DNA from: Bauldia sp.
Lineage (GTDB): Bacteria > Pseudomonadota > Alphaproteobacteria > Rhizobiales > Kaistiaceae
Length of the DNA stretch: 64,000 nt
Assembly (NCBI RefSeq): GCF_020442045.1
Contig: NZ_JAGRLA010000062.1
Span: 2,878-66,877 of the forward strand
Direction of reading: 5' to 3'
The translations under genes were made by a program, and so were the position numbers. The notes beneath the pieces were generated by a model. That model was not told the DNA's origin. It ran no database searches and saw only the letters and a program-made list of their open reading frames with translations. Below, in pieces: positions 6,230-17,258 of the stretch. How positions within the stretch are numbered: the stretch's first letter is position 1; the number at the start of each line of letters is the position of its first letter.

Positions 6230-6961
6230 CTAGGCCGGGTCGGTACCGCCTCGCGGCTTGCCTTGGTCCGCAACCTTCGCGAGGCCGTCGACCAGCCGGC
6301 CGATGACCCCGGCGAGCGGGGCGGACCGGATGCCGCCAAGGGCGGTGTCGCCCGGAGGGTGATCGGCGAGGCCCGACCAGAGCAGGCGTGGCGGTGTCCG
6401 GTCCGACGGGTCGACATAGATGATCGGGATGTCTCTCGCGGCGGCGCGCCGGAGCAGGTCGGTGGTTCCGCCCTTTCCGCCTGACGGTCCGCCGTCCCAG
6501 ACGCCGAGGATGATGTCGGCGGTGTCGAGAATGACGCGGCCGACCGGATCATAGTCGCGGGCGGGAGCGTGATAATCGCCGGGCAGGATCTCGACCCTGC
6601 TCGCCGCGTCGATCAGTTGGCGATACTCCGTCCGCGAGGCCGGCTCGGCGAAATCCCGCTCATAGTCGGCGACGGGAAAAGGCAGGACGACGTCGAGCGC
6701 GATGCCGTTCCGCACCGCCGAACGGGCGGCGATACGGTCGGCGCCTTCGGCGAGGGCGGAGATCAGTGTCAGCGAGGCGGGTCCGTCTGCAGGGGCGGAG
6801 CGATGGCGCCGCTGCGCTTCCTCGGCCGCATGCCTGAGCGACAGAAGGATCCCGTCGATTCGCGCCTCGATGGCGGCTGTCTCCTGGGGCAGGCGGTTCG
6901 GCCGATGGCCGATGATGCCGACCGAGAGGCCGAATGCTGGCTTGGGGGAATTGCTGGTCAT
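6230..6961 (-). CDS. SLOG-superfamily (DprA/LOG/YspA-like) nucleotide-binding domain protein, 243 aa
   Basis: GIIGHRP, ISALAEGADRIAA and DIILGVWDGGPSGGKGGTTD are the characteristic SLOG motif set; no additional domain recognised. Confidence 0.7.
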   Translation of the reverse strand: MTSNSPKPAFGLSVGIIGHRPNRLPQETAAIEARIDGILLSLRHAAEEAQRRHRSAPADGPASLTLISALAEGADRIAARSAVRNGIALDVVLPFPVADYERDFAEPASRTEYRQLIDAASRVEILPGDYHAPARDYDPVGRVILDTADIILGVWDGGPSGGKGGTTDLLRRAAARDIPIIYVDPSDRTPPRLLWSGLADHPPGDTALGGIRSAPLAGVIGRLVDGLAKVADQGKPRGGTDPA

Positions 6962-7011: not shown

Positions 7012-9129
7012 CTAGCGCAAGCCGCTTTGCGCGGCCTGGACCTCGGCCAGCCCGCGGATCGCATCGGGCGAGCCGGTGCCGGCGGCTGCCTGGAAGATGC
7101 GCCTGGCGTCGGCATAGCGCCGCATCTTCAGATAGGCCCAGCCGCGCAGGACGAGGAGGTCGTTCTGCTCCTGCGCATACTGGTTGCGGGCATCGAGCGC
7201 CAGGATGGTTTCCGCATAGCGGCCCTCGGCATAGAGGGCCAGGGCCTGCTGGGTGAGCACGCTGGTCATCAGCTCGGTCTGGCGCTTCGACGACTGCGGG
7301 GCGGACGCCGCGGCAACCGCCGCCTTGTCGGTGACGCCGGAGCGGAGGTTGGCAAGCGACGCGCCGTAGGCCGCATCGGAACGAACCTTGGCGTTTGGCG
7401 ACCGCATCGCGATCTCGAAGGCGGCGGCGGCCTCGACCGGCCGGTTGAGGTCCATGAGGCACCAGCCGCGCGGCAGCGCCTGGGTCGGCGTCAGGGTGTT
7501 GACCGGAGCCGAGCCGCCGCAGCGCGCCGGCGCCGCGGCCGGCGCGGCTGTCCTGCGGACAGGGGTCCTGACGATGCCGCCTTCGTCATAGACGGGGGCG
7601 TCGATGGTGTAGTTCGGTCCGCGGAGCTCGGTACGGCTGCCCGGCTTGCCGAGCTTCGCAATGCGCTCGGAGCGGTCCGCCCATTCGCGGATGACGACAT
7701 TGGCGCCGGTGCGATCCTTCAGGGCGAGCCGGGTGACCGCCAGGCCGTAGGCGGCCGACTCGTCCTCCGGATCCCATCTCAGCACGGTCTCGAACCACCG
7801 CGTCGCGGTCTTGATCTGTTTGAGGTTGTAGGCGTACCAGCCGAGCTGTTCGCCGGCGGCGGGGTCCCGCGCCTTGACGACCACGGAGACGATCCGTTCG
7901 AGGGTCGATTCCGATACCCTCGGCGGCGGGTCCATCGAAAGGAGTCCGACGACCGATCCGAGATAGGCGGCGAGATTGTCCTCCGTCGCGTCGGCCCAGT
8001 CGTAGCCAAAGGTCTCGGCTTCGGCGAAGCGATCGAGCTGGTTGAGGGACAGGGCATAGCCTTCGGCCGCCTTGGCGCTTTCGGGCGCCCGCTCCCGCGC
8101 ATCGGTGAACCAGTCGAGGGCGACGCCGGGCTTGTCGCGGCGGTAATAGTACCAGCCGAGCAGCGCGGGGTCGCCGCTATCGGCCGCCGCCCTGGCGAGG
8201 TCCTCGAGGCGGGTGAGGTCGGCGGGGTCGGCAAGGCCCTCTTCCGTCTCGGCTATCTTGCCAACGCGCCTGCGGATCTGGTCATCGCGGGCGGCGGCGA
8301 ATTCGTCGCCGCGCTCGAAGGTGAAGAGGGTGTCGGAGTCCTTCTCCGGCAGGAGCGCGACGGCCTTGCGGATCGTCGCCAGCCTTTCCTGGGGGTTATC
8401 GCAATTGGCCAGGATATAGGCGTAGGCGTCCTCGGCGCGGTTCGGCCGGTCGGTGTTGGCGAATGCCTCGGCGACCCGCCACAGCACGTCGACATAGTCG
8501 CAGGTGAGCAGGCTCGGCGTCTTCGCGGCGATATCGACGACGGCGCCCCATTGCTTGGCGTCCGAGGCGTTGGTGAGCCGGATCCGGGTGTCGGTCTGGT
8601 CGAGAAGCTGCACCAGCGCATCGGGCGGCTGCCATTGCGGCTCCTTCTTGCGGCGATCGGCGATTGCCGCGCGAACCTCGGCGTAGCGGCCCTCGGAGAA
8701 GAGCTGCCACATGCGGTCGAGCTCGTGGTCGGCATAGTCGACGGGGGCAAGCGGATCGGCCGGCGGTTGCCAGCCCGGATAGATCGCCCGCAGCCGGGCG
8801 ATCTCGGCTTCGAGCCGCCGGGCATCTCCCTGACGGGCGAAATAGCGCAACGCCGACTCGTCGACGTCCCCGCTGCGACGGTCCGTCGGCGGCGGGCTGG
8901 CCGTGCCGGGCGAATTGAGCTGGGTGTTCCGCGGAAGCTCGTCCGGCATCGCCTGGGTGATGACCAGCGGCCCCGCATCGGTGCGCCGCGCGGACGGAAT
9001 GGCGGTGCCGATCGCGCCGGTGGTGAGATCATCGACCCCGGGCGGGGTCGGCGGCATCAGGCCCTCCGTGACGATCCAGGTGGCGACGCCGGCGACCACC
9101 ACCAGTTGGACGAGTGTCTTCACAGACAT
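7012..9129 (-). CDS. TPR-repeat cellulose biosynthesis protein (BcsK/CelG-like, resembling the BcsC N-terminus), 705 aa
   Basis: N-terminal hydrophobic anchor; VDESALRYFARQGD...EAEIARLRAIYPGW and repeated LGWYxY TPR helices; overlaps the bcsZ stop; no beta-barrel region evident. Confidence 0.7.
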   Translation of the reverse strand: MSVKTLVQLVVVAGVATWIVTEGLMPPTPPGVDDLTTGAIGTAIPSARRTDAGPLVITQAMPDELPRNTQLNSPGTASPPPTDRRSGDVDESALRYFARQGDARRLEAEIARLRAIYPGWQPPADPLAPVDYADHELDRMWQLFSEGRYAEVRAAIADRRKKEPQWQPPDALVQLLDQTDTRIRLTNASDAKQWGAVVDIAAKTPSLLTCDYVDVLWRVAEAFANTDRPNRAEDAYAYILANCDNPQERLATIRKAVALLPEKDSDTLFTFERGDEFAAARDDQIRRRVGKIAETEEGLADPADLTRLEDLARAAADSGDPALLGWYYYRRDKPGVALDWFTDARERAPESAKAAEGYALSLNQLDRFAEAETFGYDWADATEDNLAAYLGSVVGLLSMDPPPRVSESTLERIVSVVVKARDPAAGEQLGWYAYNLKQIKTATRWFETVLRWDPEDESAAYGLAVTRLALKDRTGANVVIREWADRSERIAKLGKPGSRTELRGPNYTIDAPVYDEGGIVRTPVRRTAAPAAAPARCGGSAPVNTLTPTQALPRGWCLMDLNRPVEAAAAFEIAMRSPNAKVRSDAAYGASLANLRSGVTDKAAVAAASAPQSSKRQTELMTSVLTQQALALYAEGRYAETILALDARNQYAQEQNDLLVLRGWAYLKMRRYADARRIFQAAAGTGSPDAIRGLAEVQAAQSGLR

Positions 9130-10175
9130 TGGGGCTGCCTTTCGCGGACGTAGGACAGCGCCAACAGGTGAAGCGTCGACGGGTAGTAGGTGGTCGGCTC
9201 GAAGCGCCGCAGGTCTTCCGGCACCGGCGTTCCGGCCGCGCAGGCAAGGGCGGCATCGAGCATCCGGTAGCCCGGGTCGGTCAGCGTCTCGACCGGCTGA
9301 CCGGTGGCGATATCGATGATTGCCGGGCCGATCGAGGCCGCGGCGTGCTCGAAATTCTCGAGGAGCGGGCCGCTCTTCGCACCGGCGCGCAGGAGATAAA
9401 GCGGGATCCGGATGGCGTTATAGCCGTAGACGGCAGGGAAATCCGGCGCCGGGGTCAGCCCCTCGGCGGAAATCGCGACCCAGTCGGTGGGAAGCCTGGC
9501 GGGACCGAAGCGGGCAGCGTTGATCAGTTCCGCACCCGATGCGGCAAGCTGCTGCCAGGGGTGATCCGGGGCGAGCTTCTCCAGCATCGGGAAGGCTTCG
9601 AATATCCAGTAGGATGGATTGACGACAAGCATCCCGTTGTTGTCGGCGCGGCCGAAGCCTTCCGCGCCCGGACGCAGGACGATGCGGTTGTTGGCATCGG
9701 TCAGCAGATTCTCGCCGATCGCGGAGGCGAGACCGCGCGCGGCCTCGCTGTAGCGCTGGTTCCGCCAGCTCTCGCCGGCGAGGCCGAGGGCGTAGGCGAT
9801 CAGGACGTCGCCATCGCTGGCATTATTGACATCGACGACGTGGGGCTTGGCCGAGGCGTCCCACTTCCAGGCGGCGAGACGGTCGCTGCGGATCAGCAAC
9901 TCGTTGCGGGTGAAGGTCCAGATCCGATCGAACCCGTCGCGGTCGCCGGCGGAATAGGCGAGCAGCAATCCGTAGCCCTGGCTCTCGCTGTGGCTGATGC
10001 CGCCATTGACGTCGTCGACGACGCGGCCGTCTTCTCCGACGAAATGGTCAGCATAGGCCGTCCATTCAGCGCCGCTGACCGTGCCCTCCATCGTCGGGGC
10101 CGGCTGGGCGGCGACGGGAAGCGCCGTGTAACAGGCTGCGACCACGGCCAGGCGACGGAGGAGGGAAGCGCTCAC
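9120..10175 (-). CDS. bcsZ: Endo-1,4-beta-glucanase, GH8 (BcsZ/CelC)
   Basis: SHSESQGYG, NNASDGD and YNAIRIPLY GH8 motifs; signal peptide; GTG start overlaps the bcsB TGA (GTGA). Confidence 0.9.
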   Translation of the reverse strand: MSASLLRRLAVVAACYTALPVAAQPAPTMEGTVSGAEWTAYADHFVGEDGRVVDDVNGGISHSESQGYGLLLAYSAGDRDGFDRIWTFTRNELLIRSDRLAAWKWDASAKPHVVDVNNASDGDVLIAYALGLAGESWRNQRYSEAARGLASAIGENLLTDANNRIVLRPGAEGFGRADNNGMLVVNPSYWIFEAFPMLEKLAPDHPWQQLAASGAELINAARFGPARLPTDWVAISAEGLTPAPDFPAVYGYNAIRIPLYLLRAGAKSGPLLENFEHAAASIGPAIIDIATGQPVETLTDPGYRMLDAALACAAGTPVPEDLRRFEPTTYYPSTLHLLALSYVRERQPQCL

Positions 10176-12682
10176 GAACGCCTCCCGAGCCTGGAAAGCA
10201 GGGCCGACGAGCAGATTCCGAGGACCGCGCAGAGCAGCACGAGGCCAATCGCGTAGCCGACGATGTTGATCGACAGCCAATTGGCCGCGACGAGCCGGAG
10301 GTTCTGGAGCGAAAAACCGTCGCCGAGGATGAAACGCTGGCTGTCGGCCGGCAGGATCGTCAGTCCGCTGGCCGCGTCGTAGCTGGCGATGCGTCCGCCG
10401 ACCACCGACCAGTATTGCCTGGTGGTGATTTCGGCGAGGCTGTCGACCAGCGCCTCCGTGGTCGGCGAGGCGACCAGCGTCCAGGTCTGGTCGCCGGAGG
10501 CGGGCGACTCGGCGACGATCAGCGTCGACCGGTTCTCGGGGTAGAAGGGCGGCTCGGTCGCCGACATCAGGGCGAGGGACGACAACGAGAGCTCGAAGGT
10601 CCGTTCGAGCCAGTTTTCGAAAGCGAGCCAGGTGCCGCGGACGCCGGAGGGATTGACCAGCTCGGTCTGCCAGCGGTCGTAGACGCCTTCGGTCCCGGCC
10701 GTTTCGCCGAAGGTCGCCGGCGGCGATGCCAGCGGGTCGAAGTCGAAGGGCAATCCGGTCACTTCCCGCGCCGACTGGCCGGTCCAGGTATTCTGGGCCG
10801 CCTCGTCAATTCCCATTCCGGCGAGGATGGTGGCCGGGAATTGATTGAGCGTGCCGACGAAGATCGAGGGAGTGGTATTCGTCGCCTGGGTATGGCCGAT
10901 GGCCGCCGGCACGATCCGATCGGCGGAGATGGCCAGCCGGGTCAGCAACATCGCAGCCGCCGAATAGGTCGCCGGGTCCTCGCGTCCGAGCACGACCTGG
11001 ACGGGCGTCACGGCGCGATCATAGGGGGAGCCGGCGCCGGCCAGCGCGGCGAGGTTGGGCCAGCGGCCGATCCGGGCGAAGTCCGGCATCTCGAATTCGC
11101 TGGTATCGAAGATCGCGAAGCGGGCGGGCATGTCGTCCGACTTGACGGGCGTGCAGGCGGCGTCGGCCTCGGTGTCGAGCACCGCCTCGACCGTCACCCG
11201 GTTGACCCCCGGCCGGAAATGGGTGAGCGCCACGCTGATCGGCAGGTGGCGGAAGATGTCGCCCGTACGGGAGGTCAGGGGCGTGTTGGCGGCGATATAG
11301 CCGTTGACATAGACGTCGATATGGCTGCCGGGGATGACCTCGTCGGTATAGGCCGCGTCGAGGTAGATCGTCGCCTCGCCATAAGCTTCCGCGTAGAAGT
11401 CGCTGGGCAGCGCGACATGGAAGTCACTGTGCGAGCGCCGCCCGGTGAATTCGGTGGTCGGGACCGCCAGCTCGGAGAATTTCAGCCGCGTTTCCCCGGT
11501 CAGTATCGGCACGGTCGGCAGCAGCCAGGGCGTGGTGTCGACGGCCGTCGGTATCATCCCGGCGGGACGCGCGACGGAGCCGGCGATCCGGTCGATCGCC
11601 GCCTCGACGGCACTCTGATTGGGGCCGGAGATGACTAGGGTCGGCGTGGCGCCGCCGGTGCCGATGAAGCCGACCACCGGGCCGGCCCCGGCCTGATCGG
11701 GCAGACCCGGAAGGGTGGCGAGCTCGCTCGCCGTGCCGACGGCGATCTGCAGGGTGCCGGGCGGCGGCGACTGAAGCGCCGTCGGCTCGATCCGGACCAC
11801 CTGCTGGCGGAAATTGCCGCGCAACGCGATGGCCTGTACGAGGCGCAGGAGATCGGCGCCGGCCAGCATCCGGTTGCCGCCGGGCAGGACCAGGCGGAGC
11901 GTCGTCGTGCCGTCGTCGGCGAAGCCGACGGCCGGGAGATCGTCGAGGGTGGTGAAATCGTTTCCGGGCGGGGCGTCGGCATAGACCAGACCGGTGCCGG
12001 GGCTCTCGATGTCGGTCCACAATTCGTAGGTCGATTCGATCGTGCAATCGGTGCGATGGCGCTGGTCGATCTCGAAGGTCAGGACGTTGACGCCGGCCTT
12101 GAGGACGCCGGCGGGAAGGTCGATGGTGTCGCGCTTGCCGTCTGCGACCGCGGCGAGGGAACCTTCGAAGACCCGCTTGTCGTTGATGCTGATCCTGAGG
12201 CTGGAGCTCTCCGGCGCGACGTAGATCGAGCTGTTGCGGGCGATGACCAGTTCCCGCGCGCGCCGCGCCTGGGAAGCGGTCAGGGCCACGCCCCAGGAAC
12301 GCCGCCCGGCTTCGCCCTCGAAGCGGAGCTTGGCCGCCGGGAGGATGAAGCGATCGATGTCGCCGGCGTATCTCTCCTCCGGTTTCGGTGCGGGCGCCGG
12401 CTCGCTCGGCGCGGCCGGCATCGCCGGCTGGACCGGTGCGGCTGGCGGTTCCGGAGCCTCGGGCAAGATCGCCGGCGCCGGCTGCGTCGCGGTATCGTCC
12501 GGGCCGGCATCGGGGAGCGTGTCAAACGGCATGACGAAGGTATCGCCGCCGGAGGGCTGCCCGATCACCGGCTCATCGCCACGCTCCGGCGACATGTCGA
12601 AGGGCGTCTGGGCGGCGGCCAGGGTCGGCAGGATGATCGCCGTGGCAAGCAACAGGCCTCTAACGCGGAAGACCGGACTCAT
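10172..12682 (-). CDS. bcsB: Cellulose synthase periplasmic subunit BcsB, about 836 aa
   Basis: Signal peptide, Pro-rich linker, QRHRTDCTIESTYELWTDI motif and a C-terminal TM anchor; ATGA overlap with bcsA. Confidence 0.88.
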   Translation of the reverse strand: MSPVFRVRGLLLATAIILPTLAAAQTPFDMSPERGDEPVIGQPSGGDTFVMPFDTLPDAGPDDTATQPAPAILPEAPEPPAAPVQPAMPAAPSEPAPAPKPEERYAGDIDRFILPAAKLRFEGEAGRRSWGVALTASQARRARELVIARNSSIYVAPESSSLRISINDKRVFEGSLAAVADGKRDTIDLPAGVLKAGVNVLTFEIDQRHRTDCTIESTYELWTDIESPGTGLVYADAPPGNDFTTLDDLPAVGFADDGTTTLRLVLPGGNRMLAGADLLRLVQAIALRGNFRQQVVRIEPTALQSPPPGTLQIAVGTASELATLPGLPDQAGAGPVVGFIGTGGATPTLVISGPNQSAVEAAIDRIAGSVARPAGMIPTAVDTTPWLLPTVPILTGETRLKFSELAVPTTEFTGRRSHSDFHVALPSDFYAEAYGEATIYLDAAYTDEVIPGSHIDVYVNGYIAANTPLTSRTGDIFRHLPISVALTHFRPGVNRVTVEAVLDTEADAACTPVKSDDMPARFAIFDTSEFEMPDFARIGRWPNLAALAGAGSPYDRAVTPVQVVLGREDPATYSAAAMLLTRLAISADRIVPAAIGHTQATNTTPSIFVGTLNQFPATILAGMGIDEAAQNTWTGQSAREVTGLPFDFDPLASPPATFGETAGTEGVYDRWQTELVNPSGVRGTWLAFENWLERTFELSLSSLALMSATEPPFYPENRSTLIVAESPASGDQTWTLVASPTTEALVDSLAEITTRQYWSVVGGRIASYDAASGLTILPADSQRFILGDGFSLQNLRLVAANWLSINIVGYAIGLVLLCAVLGICSSALLSRLGRRS

Positions 12683-14895
12683 CGGCCGGCCTCCTCGACG
12701 ACGTCCTTCGGCTCCGGCGCCGGAGTCGGCTCGGGGATCGCCGCCTCGCGCACCGCACCGATGCGGCGCATCAGGTAGATCATGCCGCGGCCGCTCTGGA
12801 CGACCGACAGCTTGAGGAACCAGAGGGTCCCCTTGATGATCCCGATATTGACCCGGCGTGACTCCTGGAAGTCGCTCCACTGCTTGGAATTGGCGAAGAG
12901 GAGGTCGGCGATCAGGCGGAAGTGGCTTGCCCCGTGCGGCATGAAGCGACATCCGATGAGAAGCGCATTGTCCTCCATATTCGAACTGCGGATCGACAGC
13001 GGCAGCGTCTTCTCGCCGATGTCGGACAGCGGTTCGAAGCTGATGCTCGACAGGCGGGTCATATCCAGATGCGGGATCGCGGTTCCGAGCACCTTGATGC
13101 GGGCGCCGCCGATCGAAACGTCCTCGATCGAGGCCGGGATCACCTCGTCGCCATAGTGGAAATCGCAGCGCCTGACGATCTCGACGCGGTGGCTGCTTTG
13201 CGGGTTCCGCCGCTCCGAGACGACGCCGAGGGCGCAGCCGACCATCAGCAGATTGAGGATGTTCCAGGTACCGACGACAAGCGCGACATCGGCCTCATAT
13301 GGCTGCGAGATCAGCCGCCAGGCGGTCATGCCGACGCCGGCCAAGAGGATCGCGAAGATGATGTAGAAGGGGCCGCCGAGCTCGGAGATGTAGTTCCTGT
13401 CGAGCTTCTCGTCCTTGGCGGTCACCTTGAAGGTCGGCTTGCGGGGATTCATCAGGACCGAGATCAGCGCCGGCAGCAGATAGACCGACTGGATCAGCTC
13501 GTAGAGCTCGGAGATCCACGGCCACCGGTAGCGGCCGTAGAGGTAGTTCTGCATCATCAGGTTGACGATCATGTACATCAGCGTATAGGCGGCGAATTCG
13601 CCACCCGACGCGACGAAGATCTCGGCTCCGAAGAAGAGATAGAAGAGCGGCGAGATCAGGAAGATGATGCGCGGGATCGGGAACAGCCAGAACAGCGTGC
13701 TCGACATGTAGGCGAAGCGCTGCGACAGGGCGAGGCCGCGCTTAAGGGGCGGGAAGCGGAAGCGCAGGATCTGCATCATGCCCTGACCCCAGCGCGTTCG
13801 CTGGCCGATGAAGCTGGCGAAGGTGGTGGGCTGGAGACCGGCGATCAGCGGCTTGTCGACGTAGACGCTGTGCCAGCCGCGGGCGTGGAGCTCGAGAGCC
13901 GTCTCGCAATCCTCGGTGATGCTGATGCCCGAGAAGCCGCTGGTCTCGGCCAGCGCGGTCCGCCTCAGCACCGCCGCGGAACCGCAGAAGAAGGAGGCAT
14001 TCCACTTGTCGAGGCCGCGCTGGATGATGCCGTAGAACATCTCGTTCTCGGACGGCATCTTGTCGAAGGTCCTGAGGTTGCGCTCGAGTGGATCCGGGTT
14101 GATGAAGAAATGCGGCGTCTGGACGAGGAAGAGCTTCTCGTCCTCCTCGAAATAGCCGACCGTCTCGGTGAGGAAGTCGCGGGCCGGCGCATGGTCGGCA
14201 TCGAAGACCGCGACGAGTTCGCCGGTCGAATGGTCGAGGCCGTTGTTAAGGTTACCCGCCTTGGCATGCTCGTTGCGGGCGCGGGTGAGGTAGTTGACCT
14301 CCAGGTCCCTGCAGAGCTTCTGGAGCTGGGCGCGGCGCTGCTGGGCCGTGACCGCTTCCTCGACATTGTCGGAGTTGCATTTCTGGTCGGTGCCGCCGTC
14401 GTCGAGCAGCCAGATCGTCAGCTTGTCGGCCGGATAGTCGAGCCCCTTGGCCGCCGCCAGGGTCGTGGCGAGCAATCCGGCATCCTCGTTATAGGTCGGG
14501 ACGAAGATGTCGACGGTCGGCAGCTTCTTCGGCTTCGGCGCGACGCGGCTCGGAAGCGGCTTGGCGACGACGAAGAGGCTGAGGAAGAGCATGAAAACGT
14601 TGTAGAGCTCGGCGCCGAAGAGGAGCACGCCGGGAACGAAATTCTCGGGCTGGTTGATCGGCGGGATGGTCTCGGTCGAGCGCCAGTAGACGTAACGCAG
14701 GACGATCGCGATCCCCAGCGAGAGCGCCATCAGCCGCCAGATGCCCTCGGGCCTGACGACCTTGAGGCCGATCATCGCGGTGACCACGAGCGATCCGGCG
14801 ATCAACTGCGCCTGGAGGCTGATCGGCAGCGTTATCAGAAAGAGCGCTGCCGCTGCCGCAATCGCCCAAAGAAGTCCCAATCCGATCTTCGTCAT
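12679..14895 (-). CDS. bcsA: Cellulose synthase catalytic subunit BcsA/CelA, 738 aa
   Basis: DDG, HAKAGNLN, DADH, FFCGS, TED, QRTRW, FKVTAK gating loop and C-terminal PilZ (DVSIGG). Confidence 0.96.
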   Translation of the reverse strand: MTKIGLGLLWAIAAAAALFLITLPISLQAQLIAGSLVVTAMIGLKVVRPEGIWRLMALSLGIAIVLRYVYWRSTETIPPINQPENFVPGVLLFGAELYNVFMLFLSLFVVAKPLPSRVAPKPKKLPTVDIFVPTYNEDAGLLATTLAAAKGLDYPADKLTIWLLDDGGTDQKCNSDNVEEAVTAQQRRAQLQKLCRDLEVNYLTRARNEHAKAGNLNNGLDHSTGELVAVFDADHAPARDFLTETVGYFEEDEKLFLVQTPHFFINPDPLERNLRTFDKMPSENEMFYGIIQRGLDKWNASFFCGSAAVLRRTALAETSGFSGISITEDCETALELHARGWHSVYVDKPLIAGLQPTTFASFIGQRTRWGQGMMQILRFRFPPLKRGLALSQRFAYMSSTLFWLFPIPRIIFLISPLFYLFFGAEIFVASGGEFAAYTLMYMIVNLMMQNYLYGRYRWPWISELYELIQSVYLLPALISVLMNPRKPTFKVTAKDEKLDRNYISELGGPFYIIFAILLAGVGMTAWRLISQPYEADVALVVGTWNILNLLMVGCALGVVSERRNPQSSHRVEIVRRCDFHYGDEVIPASIEDVSIGGARIKVLGTAIPHLDMTRLSSISFEPLSDIGEKTLPLSIRSSNMEDNALLIGCRFMPHGASHFRLIADLLFANSKQWSDFQESRRVNIGIIKGTLWFLKLSVVQSGRGMIYLMRRIGAVREAAIPEPTPAPEPKDVVEEAGR

Positions 14896-15045
14896 ACGAG
14901 TCGTGCTGCTCTGGCCGTCGTCGGCGCCCCCTTATGGTTATCGCCCGCGGGTAGTTCCGGGATCGCTAACTCCGCGGATGGAGCTTGCGGTCCCGCCTGG
15001 TGAATCGTCATCGTGGCTAACAAATCCTTTATGCCGTCCTCCTCA

Positions 15046-15927
15046 TCAGCCCTCCGGTCCGGGAACACGGGCGTAGCTGCCGGGGGATTCCGGCTCGGGC
15101 AGTGGGACAATGGGCCCCTCGACGACCGGGGGGGGCGCCGGTGCCGGCTTCGGCCTCGAGGGGGCCGGACGGACCGGCTTCGGTTCGACCGGAAGCGTCG
15201 GTTCGAAAGGCGCCGACACGCCGCCGAGGCTCTCGCTGACCGGCGGCGGCTTGCCGTAAGGGTTCCAGAGGGGCGAGGGCAGGTAGCCGACGATGGTGAA
15301 GCCGTACATCACCGAAAGCAGCTGCTGCTCGCTGGCGCGGGCATCGCAGAGCCGCAGCCGGATGCCGACCGAGCCCGTCGTCGGCAGGATCTGGTCCTGG
15401 TGGCGGCCGATATGCTGCCAGGCATAGAGGCAACGGTCGCCGGTCGAGGCGATGCCGGTGGCGAAGCCGAAGGGCCCGTATTTGTTCTGGGCGTAAAGCT
15501 GCGAGCGCCTCATCGGGACGCCGAGCAGGTACCAGTTGAATTCCTTGGCGATCTGCGACGGCGAGATCGAGTTCGGGCCGAGGGCGTTGTCCTGGACGGT
15601 GGTGTAGCCGACCGGGCCGTAGAGGGTGATGTTGAGGAAGTTCTGTCCCGACACCCTGGCGTTGGTCTCGAGGATCGTCTCGCGGACGATGGCGTCCTTG
15701 AAACGCTTCTCGAGGACGCCGACCGTCGCCGGCCCGCCCGGCGGCAGCGTGACGAAGGACTGGTTGGCCGGGAGCTCGGTCTTGACCCCCGCGATCCGCG
15801 GTCCCGACGCGCAGCCGGCGAGCGAACAGAGCAGCAAGAGAGCGACCGACAGCCGTCCGCCCCGACGCGGCGAAGCGCGCCTGGCAGCAAGCGCGATTCC
15901 TGACGGGGTGGGCTCGGCCAAGATCAA
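15046..15927 (-). CDS. bcsN: BcsN-like lipoprotein of cellulose operons
   Basis: Lipobox LLCSLAGC; GQNFLNITLYGP, NKYGPFGFA, CLYAWQ and IRLRLC; sits at the head of the bcs operon. Start codon uncertain (TTG). Confidence 0.65.
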   Translation of the reverse strand: MILAEPTPSGIALAARRASPRRGGRLSVALLLLCSLAGCASGPRIAGVKTELPANQSFVTLPPGGPATVGVLEKRFKDAIVRETILETNARVSGQNFLNITLYGPVGYTTVQDNALGPNSISPSQIAKEFNWYLLGVPMRRSQLYAQNKYGPFGFATGIASTGDRCLYAWQHIGRHQDQILPTTGSVGIRLRLCDARASEQQLLSVMYGFTIVGYLPSPLWNPYGKPPPVSESLGGVSAPFEPTLPVEPKPVRPAPSRPKPAPAPPPVVEGPIVPLPEPESPGSYARVPGPEG

Positions 15928-16274
15928 TCACACGGGTTGGGCTCGGCCGCGGCGAAAGCCGTCGGCAAAAAGCGGCCAATTTCCAGTGGATTAACCGTGT
16001 CGAATTATGCTTAACGAAGTCCTAATATCGGCGGTTTCAGGCGGGTTTGAGCCCGGTTTTCGGCACCGGCCGGACATCCGTCGACCGGTGGTGGCCCGCA
16101 GCGGCGCCGCGACACCAAGATCAGCCTCCAACCACAGTATCGCGTTGGCCGCGCGCGAATCACGGCCCGACGGTGAACAGCCGGCGCCGCTCGGCCCGTC
16201 ACGGCGGCATCCCGCCCGGTTTCGCGATCGCGGGAATGGCGGAAAGAAAGCGGAATCCGCGCTCTTGCGGGCCG

Positions 16275-17258
16275 TCAGGCAGCGACCAGCGGCACCAGTC
16301 GCGGCGGCTGGCCGGAGAGACCGAAGAGATCGAGGGCGAGATCGACGGTCAGGCGGTTGACCCGATCGACCGCCTCGGCGGTGTTCGAGCCGTTATGGGT
16401 GCCGAACATCAGGTGGTCGAACTTGCGGAGCGGGCTGTCCATGGGCAGCGGCTCGGTCTCGAAGACGTCGAGCGCGGCGGTCGCCACCTTGCCGCTTTCG
16501 AGCGCGGCGACGAGCGCCGGTTCGTCGATGATCGGACCTCGGGCGACGTTGACGATGCGCACGCCGTCCTTCATCCGCGCGAAGGCGTCCGTCGAAAGGA
16601 GATGGAAGCTCTCCGGCGTCAGGGCGCAGGTGACGACGATGAAATCGCTGTCGGCAAGCAGGCGGTCGAGACTGACCTGGGCCGCGCCCTCGCGTTGCAT
16701 GAGCGCCGGATCGATCTCGGCCGGATCATAGCCGATCACGGTCATCCCGAAGGCGGCGAGCCGACGGCAGGTCGCCCGGCCGATGCCGCCGAGGCCGATG
16801 ACGCCGGCGGTGCATCGGGACAGCGAGGTGCCCTCGACCTTGAGCCAGCCGCCCGACCAGACCGACGCGCTCATCCGGTGGAGGCCACGGGCGAGGTTGA
16901 CGACATAGGCGGCCGCGCAGTCGGCGACCTCCTCCGAGAAGACGCCCGGCGTGTTGTAGACGGCGATGCCGAGCTCGGCGGCGGCGGCCTTGTCGATACC
17001 GTCGGTGCCGATGCCCCATTTGATGATCGCCTCGAGCCCCGTCGCCTTGCCGGCCTCGAGGACCGGGCGGCCGATGATGTCGTCGCCGGCGATCACCAGC
17101 CGCTGCCCGACGATGACCTTCTCCATCTCGGCGGAATCGAGTTGCTGTCCGTCGACCGGAGGGATGCTGACCTGGATGCCATGCCCTTCGATCTCGGTAC
17201 GGAAGCGCTGATAGTGGCGCATCAGGTGGCCACAGGTAACGAGCAGGGTATGGGTCAT
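16275..17258 (-). CDS. D-isomer-specific 2-hydroxyacid dehydrogenase (PGDH-like)
   Basis: KWGIGTDGID, NTPG, GVIGLGGIG, VNVARG, LDVFETEP and THNGS; ATGA overlap with the upstream cytidylyltransferase. Confidence 0.88.
   Translation of the reverse strand: MTHTLLVTCGHLMRHYQRFRTEIEGHGIQVSIPPVDGQQLDSAEMEKVIVGQRLVIAGDDIIGRPVLEAGKATGLEAIIKWGIGTDGIDKAAAAELGIAVYNTPGVFSEEVADCAAAYVVNLARGLHRMSASVWSGGWLKVEGTSLSRCTAGVIGLGGIGRATCRRLAAFGMTVIGYDPAEIDPALMQREGAAQVSLDRLLADSDFIVVTCALTPESFHLLSTDAFARMKDGVRIVNVARGPIIDEPALVAALESGKVATAALDVFETEPLPMDSPLRKFDHLMFGTHNGSNTAEAVDRVNRLTVDLALDLFGLSGQPPRLVPLVAA

Follow-up and report, generated by a model that had tools for sequence, protein, structure and literature searches.

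The single-copy bcsA gene of this Bauldia-like Hyphomicrobiales bacterium encodes a genuine cellulose synthase, predicted to be active, in which the two residues of the autoinhibitory Arg-Glu latch are replaced by Gln566 and Thr357. Judging from the sequences compared here, we give about even credence to the reading that this latch-less BcsA retains a non-canonical but functional PilZ sensor, with its control rewired and not discarded. In BcsA of Rhodobacter sphaeroides, the salt bridge between R580 and E371 tethers the gating loop, and the linker arginines R579, R580, and R584 contact c-di-GMP. To our knowledge, no other mechanism of c-di-GMP activation has been defined structurally for a cellulose synthase, and reviews call this salt bridge conserved.

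The gene lies in a probable type III bcsN-bcsA-bcsB-bcsZ-bcsK operon of the window (the whole stretch of 64,000 nucleotides analysed), in which BcsK is assigned by position; the operon class is that of Romling & Galperin 2015, to the extent that it is summarised in PMC8892547. The features of the locus are as follows:
15046..15927, minus strand, bcsN, the first gene of the operon, lipoprotein-like, 293 aa (Pfam PF17038 CBP_BcsN, E 5e-57, 192.8 bits)
12679..14895, minus strand, bcsA, UDP-forming cellulose synthase catalytic subunit, 738 aa (TIGR03030 CelA, 910.9 bits, cut-off 699.1)
13825..13827, minus strand, codon of T357, the position of the latch Glu (E371) in R. sphaeroides (alignment and script)
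13414..13431, minus strand, gating-loop motif FKVTAK, residues 489-494 (aligned with FAVTAK of R. sphaeroides)
13183..13230, minus strand, TM8-to-PilZ linker, residues 556-571, LGVVSERRNPQSSHRV (clade conservation)
13198..13200, minus strand, codon of Q566 (CAA), the R580 position and first Arg of RxxxR (alignment and script)
13186..13188, minus strand, codon of R570, the R584 position and second Arg of RxxxR, retained (alignment and script)
12895..13197, minus strand, PilZ beta-barrel domain, residues 567-667 (Pfam PF07238, 30.6 bits, cut-off 22.5)
13105..13122, minus strand, DVSIGG, residues 592-597, the intact DxSxxG c-di-GMP motif (script)
10172..12682, minus strand, bcsB, 836 aa counted from M91 of a long ORF (Pfam PF03170 BcsB, E 2e-44)
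9120..10280, minus strand, bcsZ, GH8 endoglucanase (PF01270, E 6e-51; NF008305 BcsZ, E 1e-46, under the cut-off of that model)
7012..9129, minus strand, TPR protein in the BcsK position, 705 aa (TPR Pfam matches; BcsK role from position)

The start of bcsB was placed at the ATG at 12682, which overlaps the bcsA stop at 12679-12681 (an ATGA overlap), and the gene is adjacent to and co-oriented with bcsA. The genes bcsC, bcsD, bcsE, and bcsG are absent among the ORFs of the operon, in which the TPR gene stands after bcsZ and bcsN stands before bcsA; both placements are kept in genera g1, g6, and g12 of our operon comparison. No second bcsA paralogue was found in the genome. The GT2 catalytic motifs of BcsA are present as DDG (165-167), DAD (232-234), TED (327-329), and QRTRW (365-369), together with the FxVTxK gating loop. 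In the translation, residues 353-369 read GLQPTTFASFIGQRTRW and residues 560-571 read SERRNPQSSHRV.

A first-pass annotation of this DNA had equated T357 with E371 and Q566 with R580 by motif register, and phmmer, MAFFT, and the Pfam PilZ match all uphold this assignment. The phmmer alignment with PDB 4HG6/4P00 (E 1e-193) runs ungapped from TM8 through beta-1 and pairs 'liaglqpTtfasf' with 'miaglqpEtfasf' and 'serrnpQsshRv' with 'aekqqrRaapRv', which gives the equivalences T357=E371, P565=R579, Q566=R580, and R570=R584. The Pfam PilZ match begins at residue 567, corresponding to profile position 4; the two motif arginines of the model, which we take to be profile positions 3 and 7, would hence be residues 566 and 570. 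The MAFFT alignments, one of 121 homologues and one of 150 family representatives, are gap-free in this region for the close relatives. At these columns the near relatives P0018, P0020, and P0048 read NP-R-xSH-R, which makes Q566 a simple R-to-Q exchange, and the R570 position is Arg in 121 of 121 homologues. R562 or R563, the other candidates for the R580 position, are ruled out by the ungapped HMMER and MAFFT alignments and by the NP-R-xSH-R relatives, and the Pfam match is consistent with this; the multiple sequence alignment that the annotation had proposed as a check thus agrees with its register. The codons of both substituted residues (13825-13827 and 13198-13200) were verified by script, which likewise bore out that RxxxR is lacking while DxSxxG and FxVTxK are intact: no RxxxR occurs in any register of residues 560-571.

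Compared with R. sphaeroides BcsA (PDB 4HG6, 4P00, and 5EJ1; 44% identity over the full length in the Foldseek alignment), the protein shares the TM/GT/PilZ architecture, the catalytic motifs, the FxVTxK loop, DxSxxG, and the R584 equivalent, whereas E371 is replaced by T, R579 by P, and R580 by Q. A salt bridge of the R580-E371 type cannot form here because its two positions are occupied by Gln and Thr. The AF2 model of BcsA (pLDDT 87.2) gives 4P00, 5EJ1, and 4HG6 as the top Foldseek matches with TM 0.90-0.91 (4P00 0.91), and the overall fold agrees with BcsA, comprising 8 TM helices, the GT-A domain, the C-terminal PilZ domain, and the hinge helix. The PilZ strands (571-651) are modelled, with 10-residue pLDDT blocks across residues 571-660 mostly at 86-94, and the mean pLDDT of residues 561-570 is 64. 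The model is as close to the bound as to the free R. sphaeroides structures and hence does not discriminate between the readings considered below.

The strongest alternative is that the enzyme is a constitutively unlocked, c-di-GMP-blind synthase in which transcription, the supply of substrate, or a partner (BcsN or BcsK, for instance) determines the output and the PilZ domain is retained only to support the GT domain structurally. We consider this unlikely, although it fits T357 and Q566 at the latch positions, and PMC5567048, where it cites Morgan et al. 2014, describes R580A as constitutively active in R. sphaeroides BcsA. It also gains from P565 and H569, which stand where Rhizobium has the R579 equivalent and the shifted Arg, from the degenerate PilZ motifs of other BcsA lineages (18 of 144 family representatives, some of them fragments), and from position 357, which drifts among T, S, A, and G within the genus and therefore has no specific partner residue. 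On the other side stands the conservation of the sensor. The substitution combination is shared by 10 of the 10 bcsA-carrying species of the genus, whose linker is SERRNPQS[S/T]HRV with only the R584 equivalent kept. Among 24 clade rows (~18 distinct proteins), residues 556-571 are invariant at 15 of the 16 positions (binomial p 4e-4 vs 51% overall), and the IEDVSxGGAR block (590-599) is invariant at 9 of 10 (binomial p 2e-4 vs 31% for the barrel). Q566 is invariant in the clade, as are D592, S594, and G597, and no part of the C-terminal half of BcsA is more conserved than the linker and the DxSxxG block.

Loss of sensor function would be expected to relax the constraint on the PilZ domain; no such relaxation was seen, which counts against the c-di-GMP-blind reading. 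The control was the Kaistia-like sister genus (g12) of the same family, whose BcsA (~65% identity, A357, identical bcsN-A-B-Z-K operon) keeps R566xxxR570 in the canonical register (ENRQSRR). The NG86 dN/dS of the linker and PilZ domain is 0.286 in the genus vs 0.291 in the sister genus, that of the GT domain is 0.137 vs 0.143, and PilZ values range over 0.29-0.36 vs 0.29-0.32; dS is high (0.7-0.9), which makes the individual values approximate, and for this reason the two genera were only compared with each other. Relaxed selection on the PilZ domain is accordingly rejected: the linker is under selection, and the altered sensor is strictly conserved across the genus. The conservation of the linker and DxSxxG could nevertheless reflect packing against the GT domain or the gating loop instead of ligand binding.

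The genomic surroundings point the same way. The genome encodes 10 GGDEF domains and 5 EAL domains, as well as a tandem-PilZ protein with canonical RRHER/DLSLSG motifs. The first-pass annotation had argued that an enzyme unlocked or bound to another ligand must be controlled through transcription or a partner, and this finds no support: none of the 10 GGDEF matches lies on the contig of the window, no Rfam riboswitch or known RNA matched at E<=1 in 14600-16600 upstream of bcsN/bcsA, and the operon comparison gave no genus-specific partner, the same N-A-B-Z-K order occurring in genera with and without RxxxR. A SLOG-like ORF at 6230-6961 was tried as a partner and rejected, as its PF10686 match is only sub-threshold (E 0.0096); it occurs near the operon only in the closest relative and is absent in the other PQ-type species.

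The CelA/BcsA proteins of Rhizobiaceae (R. leguminosarum, the R. etli complex, R. tropici, Ensifer, Sinorhizobium, and Neorhizobium), at 64-67% identity, belong to the same, probably type III, operon family and the same tree clade; they too have lost the Glu (A357), carry a residue other than Arg at 566, and keep DxSxxG intact. The caveat raised in the annotation, that Rhizobiaceae may lack the Glu while keeping a shifted RxxxR, was borne out: 80 of 80 species loci have A357 and non-Arg at 566, mostly with R565-x-x-x-R569-R570. Rhizobiaceae thus mostly keep R565 (the R579 equivalent) and R569-R570, forming a shifted R565xxxR569, whereas the genus studied here has P565 and H569. In R. etli, cellulose is negligible in vivo until c-di-GMP is raised (PMC9495663), so that a Rhizobium with the double loss is not constitutive; as this evidence is in vivo, the effect may run through cel gene transcription. 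In A. tumefaciens, synthase activity in extracts rises with c-di-GMP, as PMC4018554 relates in citing Amikam & Benziman 1989, the latch state of its CelA being taken from its family, where close relatives stand in for Atu3309 and for RHE_CH01542 (R. etli CFN42). The Rhizobium precedent carries over only in part, since Rhizobium keeps the R579 and R584 equivalents and R569.

A further alternative, which we consider doubtful, is that the PilZ domain is functional with a changed input received through the Gln/His linker, namely monomeric c-di-GMP, a different nucleotide, or a protein partner. Such a change would suit the strict conservation of the novel linker N564-P565-Q566...H569, with residues 564-566 among only 11 clade-specific positions of the whole protein. 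The residue preceding RxxxR reportedly governs monomer versus dimer binding in PilZ proteins, which would also favour this reading, and the linker is evolutionarily plastic, residue 565 being W, Y, K, L, or P elsewhere in the sub-clades compared. The proposal is speculative, however; the guanine-binding DxSxxG is unchanged, and nothing linked to the operon offers a candidate for an alternative ligand or a partner gene. A literature search for 'QxxxR' PilZ variants turned up no papers.

The order of the losses was read from a tree built with the trait columns removed. Family-wide, the Arg-Glu latch is the rule: among 144 informative representatives (50%-identity clusters), 104 are canonical in having an acidic residue, RxxxR, and DxSxxG, 7 are non-acidic at 357 with RxxxR and DxSxxG intact, and only 1 is non-acidic without RxxxR and with DxSxxG intact. 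The acidic state at 357 needs only 2 changes on the tree, of which one falls at the root of a 135-row clade (SH-aLRT 94) and the other concerns P0024 (E357). Loss of the Glu was thus a single event basal to a large group of Hyphomicrobiales with Rhizobium, Sinorhizobium/Ensifer, Mesorhizobium, and Kaistia among its members, from which the latch would be absent as a whole. The R566 state, by comparison, changes at least 4 times. Because P0020 (T357 and R566) falls inside the PQ clade and A357 occurs together with R566 in Kaistia, the sequences suggest that the Glu was lost first and R566 later. In the Hyphomicrobiales set, all E/D357 sequences but one have R566, and in no case did R566 disappear before the Glu. 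If the two positions are functionally coupled, this Glu-then-Arg pattern is what one would predict, and the coupling argument is made from the order of events, as the independent-contrast comparison of 357 and 566 yields only 1-2 pairs of independent changes, too few for a sign test. That the substitutions are neutral, the latch being peculiar to R. sphaeroides BcsA and the regulation of the clade indistinguishable from that of canonical BcsA, is very improbable, for although the 7 non-acidic representatives with intact motifs and the R566 of Kaistia would allow it, 104 of 144 representatives keep the complete set and R566 disappears only once the Glu is gone. The double substitution alone does not predict independence from c-di-GMP, because the loss of the Glu is ancestral and both Rhizobium and A. 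tumefaciens are c-di-GMP-responsive. The c-di-GMP independence first proposed for this synthase is only partly supported: the substitutions are real, but selection is maintained and relatives with the double loss respond.

According to the preferred reading, that of a latch-less BcsA with a rewired sensor, the Glu disappeared a single time, in a deep ancestor common to this genus and to Rhizobiaceae, Mesorhizobium, and Kaistia, and the Arg-Glu latch cannot form here. The Arg, released from its part in the latch, was replaced afterwards in several lineages independently, here by Gln. The enzyme would still be held off and switched on via the PilZ domain, c-di-GMP probably binding to the intact DxSxxG face and to the non-canonical conserved linker R562 R563 N P Q566 S S/T H569 R570 and thereby activating this BcsA. 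Binding would shift the linker and the hinge helix relative to the gating loop, with no salt bridge to break, and the affinity and stoichiometry (dimer or monomer) would probably be unlike those of canonical BcsA. Against a functional sensor, just one of the three c-di-GMP-contacting linker arginines (the R579, R580, and R584 equivalents) is kept, and in PilZ proteins of other kinds binding is usually lost when the first Arg of RxxxR is mutated. A case of retained control is provided by BgsA of Sinorhizobium meliloti, a mixed-linkage beta-glucan synthase: c-di-GMP activates it although it has no canonical RxxxR/DxSxxG PilZ domain (PMC5567048), which shows that c-di-GMP control can survive the loss of canonical motifs. 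BgsA is likewise a BcsA-related GT2 synthase without canonical motifs; however, it has no PilZ fold and is a distinct paralogue with BgsB as its partner, whereas the protein described here keeps the PilZ barrel and BcsB.

The clade that lost the latch, in a single event, includes rhizobia of agricultural importance, and decay of the Arg followed there several times. Since Rhizobium cellulose is still triggered by c-di-GMP in vivo, this clade must have a second way of gating the enzyme that works without the latch. What appears new here is the genus-specific linker in which only the R584 equivalent is kept, the loss of the Glu itself being old and widespread. We put forward tentatively, as a possibility for this entire genus of free-living alphaproteobacteria, that its BcsA has either lost c-di-GMP control or uses its PilZ domain with a new ligand or binding mode through the R-R-N-P-Q-S-S-H-R linker, and that throughout the latch-less Rhizobiaceae/Mesorhizobium/Kaistia/Bauldia clade gating by c-di-GMP is of a different, undescribed kind. 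With one of three linker arginines left and a frozen new linker, the genus is the extreme case and a natural test system: if its BcsA does not bind c-di-GMP, it would be a natural constitutive BcsA of interest for bacterial cellulose production, and if it does, it would exhibit a new PilZ binding mode.

[quoted passage not shown] It scores 910.9 bits on the TIGR03030 CelA model (cut-off 699.1) and aligns with R. sphaeroides BcsA (4HG6/4P00) at an E-value of 1e-193 in HMMER, and among named homologues the nearest come from Bauldia MAGs (88% identity). The catalytic motifs are complete (DDG 165-167, DAD 232-234, TED 327-329, and QRTRW 365-369), the gating-loop motif FKVTAK occupies residues 489-494, and the gene is the single bcsA in its own genome (4.19 Mb, 98% complete). 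The operon order, bcsN-A-B-Z-K, is consistent with the type III layout as summarised in PMC8892547:

15046-15927, co-oriented with bcsA: bcsN (PF17038, E 5e-57)
12679-14895, minus strand: bcsA, a 738-aa open reading frame for a full-length BcsA
10172-12682, co-oriented with bcsA: bcsB (PF03170), its ATG overlapping the bcsA stop codon
9120-10280, co-oriented with bcsA: bcsZ (GH8)
7012-9129, co-oriented with bcsA: TPR protein in the BcsK position, 705 aa

The longest bcsB open reading frame (10172-12952, minus strand, 926 aa) begins 270 nt within bcsA; translation probably starts instead at M91, whose ATG at 12682 gives a protein of 836 aa. The resulting ATGA overlap with the bcsA stop codon implies translational coupling.

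The HMMER alignment runs without gaps from TM8 into beta-1 and pairs T357 with E371, P565 with R579, Q566 with R580, and R570 with R584, which upholds the register that the first-pass annotation had set by motif. Its residues and coordinates are likewise all correct (T357, 13825-13827; Q566, 13198-13200; R570, 13186-13188; DVSIGG, residues 592-597), and the absence of RxxxR was borne out in every register of SERRNPQSSHRV. The Pfam PilZ match starts at residue 567, profile position 4, and the consensus of that model is presumably consistent with motif arginines at 566 and 570. In the same alignment columns, the close relatives P0018, P0020, and P0048 read NP-R-xSH-R, so that, given the ungapped register, Q566 is a simple Arg-to-Gln replacement. 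Placement of R562/R563 at the R580 position was ruled out, since the register puts Q566 there.

The R580-E371 salt bridge has been termed conserved (PMC5567048), and we found that the latch pair is indeed the rule across the family. The comparison took 150 family members, each standing for a 50%-identity cluster in a set of 1.84 billion proteins; both sites are present in 144 of them. The acidic residue, RxxxR, and DxSxxG occur together in 104, RxxxR is retained beside a non-acidic residue in 7, and 18, some of them fragments, have degenerate or missing PilZ motifs. Only one of the 144 joins a non-acidic residue and no RxxxR to an intact DxSxxG. Closer Hyphomicrobiales homologues depart strongly from this: among 121 of them, position 357 is Ala in 86, Thr in 9, Ser in 6, Gly in 1, and acidic in 19, and only 29 carry Arg at 566. 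We found no literature report of the pair missing from the Rhizobiaceae/Mesorhizobium/Kaistia/Bauldia clade, nor of a Gln-for-Arg PilZ linker in BcsA.

A maximum-likelihood tree of 161 sequences was built with position 357 and residues 560-571 taken out of the alignment. The outgroup and basal Hyphomicrobiales (Microvirga, Bosea, Ancylobacter, and Faunimonas types) have Glu or Asp at 357 and Arg at 566. The acidic residue was lost in one 135-row clade (SH-aLRT 94), within which the Kaistia-like genus retains R566 (ENRQSRR). R566 gave way to Ala, Ser, or Thr in the 76-row Rhizobiaceae/Mesorhizobium clade (GERAATRR, with R565xxxR569-R570), was replaced in the small clade of genus g6 (RERQRTRR), and became Gln in the 25-row clade containing the window's protein (SH-aLRT 99), where one member, P0020, keeps it (T357, RSNPRASHR). 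This distribution, with minima of two changes for the acidic state and four for R566, indicates that Glu was lost first and Arg afterwards, repeatedly, as expected if R566 had two jobs, in the latch and in ligand contact, and lost one. Too few changes arose independently to allow a formal contrast test of coupling between 357 and 566.

The regulatory module of the window's genus shows no sign of decay. All 10 bcsA-carrying species (74-90% identity) share SERRNPQS[S/T]HRV, while position 357 drifts among Thr, Ser, Ala, and Gly. The alignment of 24 rows from the clade, representing some 18 different proteins, is invariant at 51% of positions overall and at 31% within the PilZ barrel, compared with 15 of 16 positions in linker 556-571 (p 4e-4) and 9 of 10 in IEDVSxGGAR (590-599; p 2e-4). 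Q566 does not vary in the clade, and N564, P565, and Q566 belong to a set of just 11 positions, over the full length of the protein, that are specific to the clade. No relaxed constraint on linker plus PilZ was seen between the two genera: Nei-Gojobori dN/dS is 0.286 for the window's genus against 0.291 for its Kaistia-like sister, which keeps R566xxxR570 (GT domain, 0.137 and 0.143), values that, because synonymous divergence is high, are meaningful only as a between-genus comparison. In R. sphaeroides, T511 also touches R580 in the resting state; its equivalent is K497 (beyond codons 13414-13431) in the window's protein and its two closest relatives, Thr in the other species of the genus, and Ser in the Kaistia-like one. 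At the position of E514 stands Arg or Lys (R500 in the window's protein).

The best-supported reading, at about even odds, is a latch-less BcsA whose PilZ module is still a regulatory input, most simply for c-di-GMP. Input would enter through DxSxxG, R570, and the remodelled but conserved linker, and affinity or stoichiometry would probably differ. An enzyme that is constitutive by nature and blind to c-di-GMP, as the first-pass annotation had proposed from the double substitution, is rather unlikely: the substitution does not by itself imply independence, as cellulose synthesis in R. etli and A. tumefaciens responds to c-di-GMP, and comparative sequence evidence does not favour it. A357 with a non-Arg residue at 566 occurs in 80 of 80 Rhizobiaceae species loci from the genome collection, including R. 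leguminosarum bv. viciae and R. etli complex species, and in chromid copies of R. tropici CIAT 899, Ensifer adhaerens, Neorhizobium galegae, and S. medicae; several Rhizobiaceae have Lys, Gln, Leu, or Pro at 565 and hence no RxxxR whatever. R. etli CFN42 makes negligible cellulose in laboratory conditions and celAB-dependent cellulose when PleD* raises c-di-GMP (PMC3953490, PMC9495663), in vivo evidence that transcriptional control of cel expression could also explain. In A. tumefaciens crude extracts, synthase activity rose with micromolar c-di-GMP, according to the passage of PMC4018554 citing Amikam & Benziman 1989. The residue states of CFN42 and C58 are those of relatives, not of their own sequences. 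Rhizobium, moreover, keeps the R579 and R584 equivalents and R569, whereas the window's genus has only R570 (=R584), with P565, Q566, and H569, and R562-R563 upstream, a stronger departure.

Five proteins of a Rhizobiaceae/Mesorhizobium-type sub-clade (P0041, P0071, P0077, P0078, and P0103) have Trp at 565 (ERREW[S/T]xTRR), where most of their relatives have Arg (R579 equivalent); this aromatic residue could stack on guanine. Other sub-clades have Lys, Gln, Leu, Tyr, or Pro at 565, so this linker changes readily over evolution.

It is improbable that the ligand or the mode of binding has changed, and very unlikely that the substitutions are neutral. The AlphaFold2 model (mean pLDDT 87.2; TM 0.90-0.91 to 4P00, 5EJ1, and 4HG6) cannot choose among these readings, since its confidence is lowest at the linker (pLDDT 64) and in the gating loop (55) and it fits c-di-GMP-bound and c-di-GMP-free structures equally. 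The window's BcsA is a good experimental lead.

The transcriptional or partner-based control also put forward in the first-pass annotation found no support: no Rfam family, c-di-GMP riboswitches included, matched upstream of bcsN or bcsA, and genera that keep RxxxR share the same bcsN-A-B-Z-K operon with genera that lack it. The genome encodes 10 GGDEF domains, none of them on the window's contig, 5 EAL domains, and, besides BcsA, one further PilZ match. This is a 205-aa tandem-PilZ protein (contig C189:11385-11927, loci L002/L004), whose first domain reads RRRFQR and DMSPGS (Gly to Ser) and whose second reads canonical RRHER and DLSLSG, so c-di-GMP signalling and canonical receptors are in use. 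A 243-aa open reading frame (6230-6961, minus strand), which follows the TPR gene after 50 nt, gives only a sub-threshold PF10686 match (YspA/SLOG, E 0.0096). The closest relative, G001, is the only one with a homologue near its bcs operon (60% identity, lying about 1.8 kb farther downstream); other species of the genus and sister genera have none there. Two loci of the window's genus have unusual bcsA frames. In L014 (genome G003), bcsA has one in-frame TGA, which may point to a pseudogene, an error in the sequence, or recoding. In L012 (genome G008), the open frame through bcsA spans 1488 aa (longest open reading frame in the locus, 1233 aa), which suggests a bcsA-bcsB fusion or a stop codon lost in the MAG; the family representatives, too, often carry BcsA fused to BcsB (1250-1770 aa).
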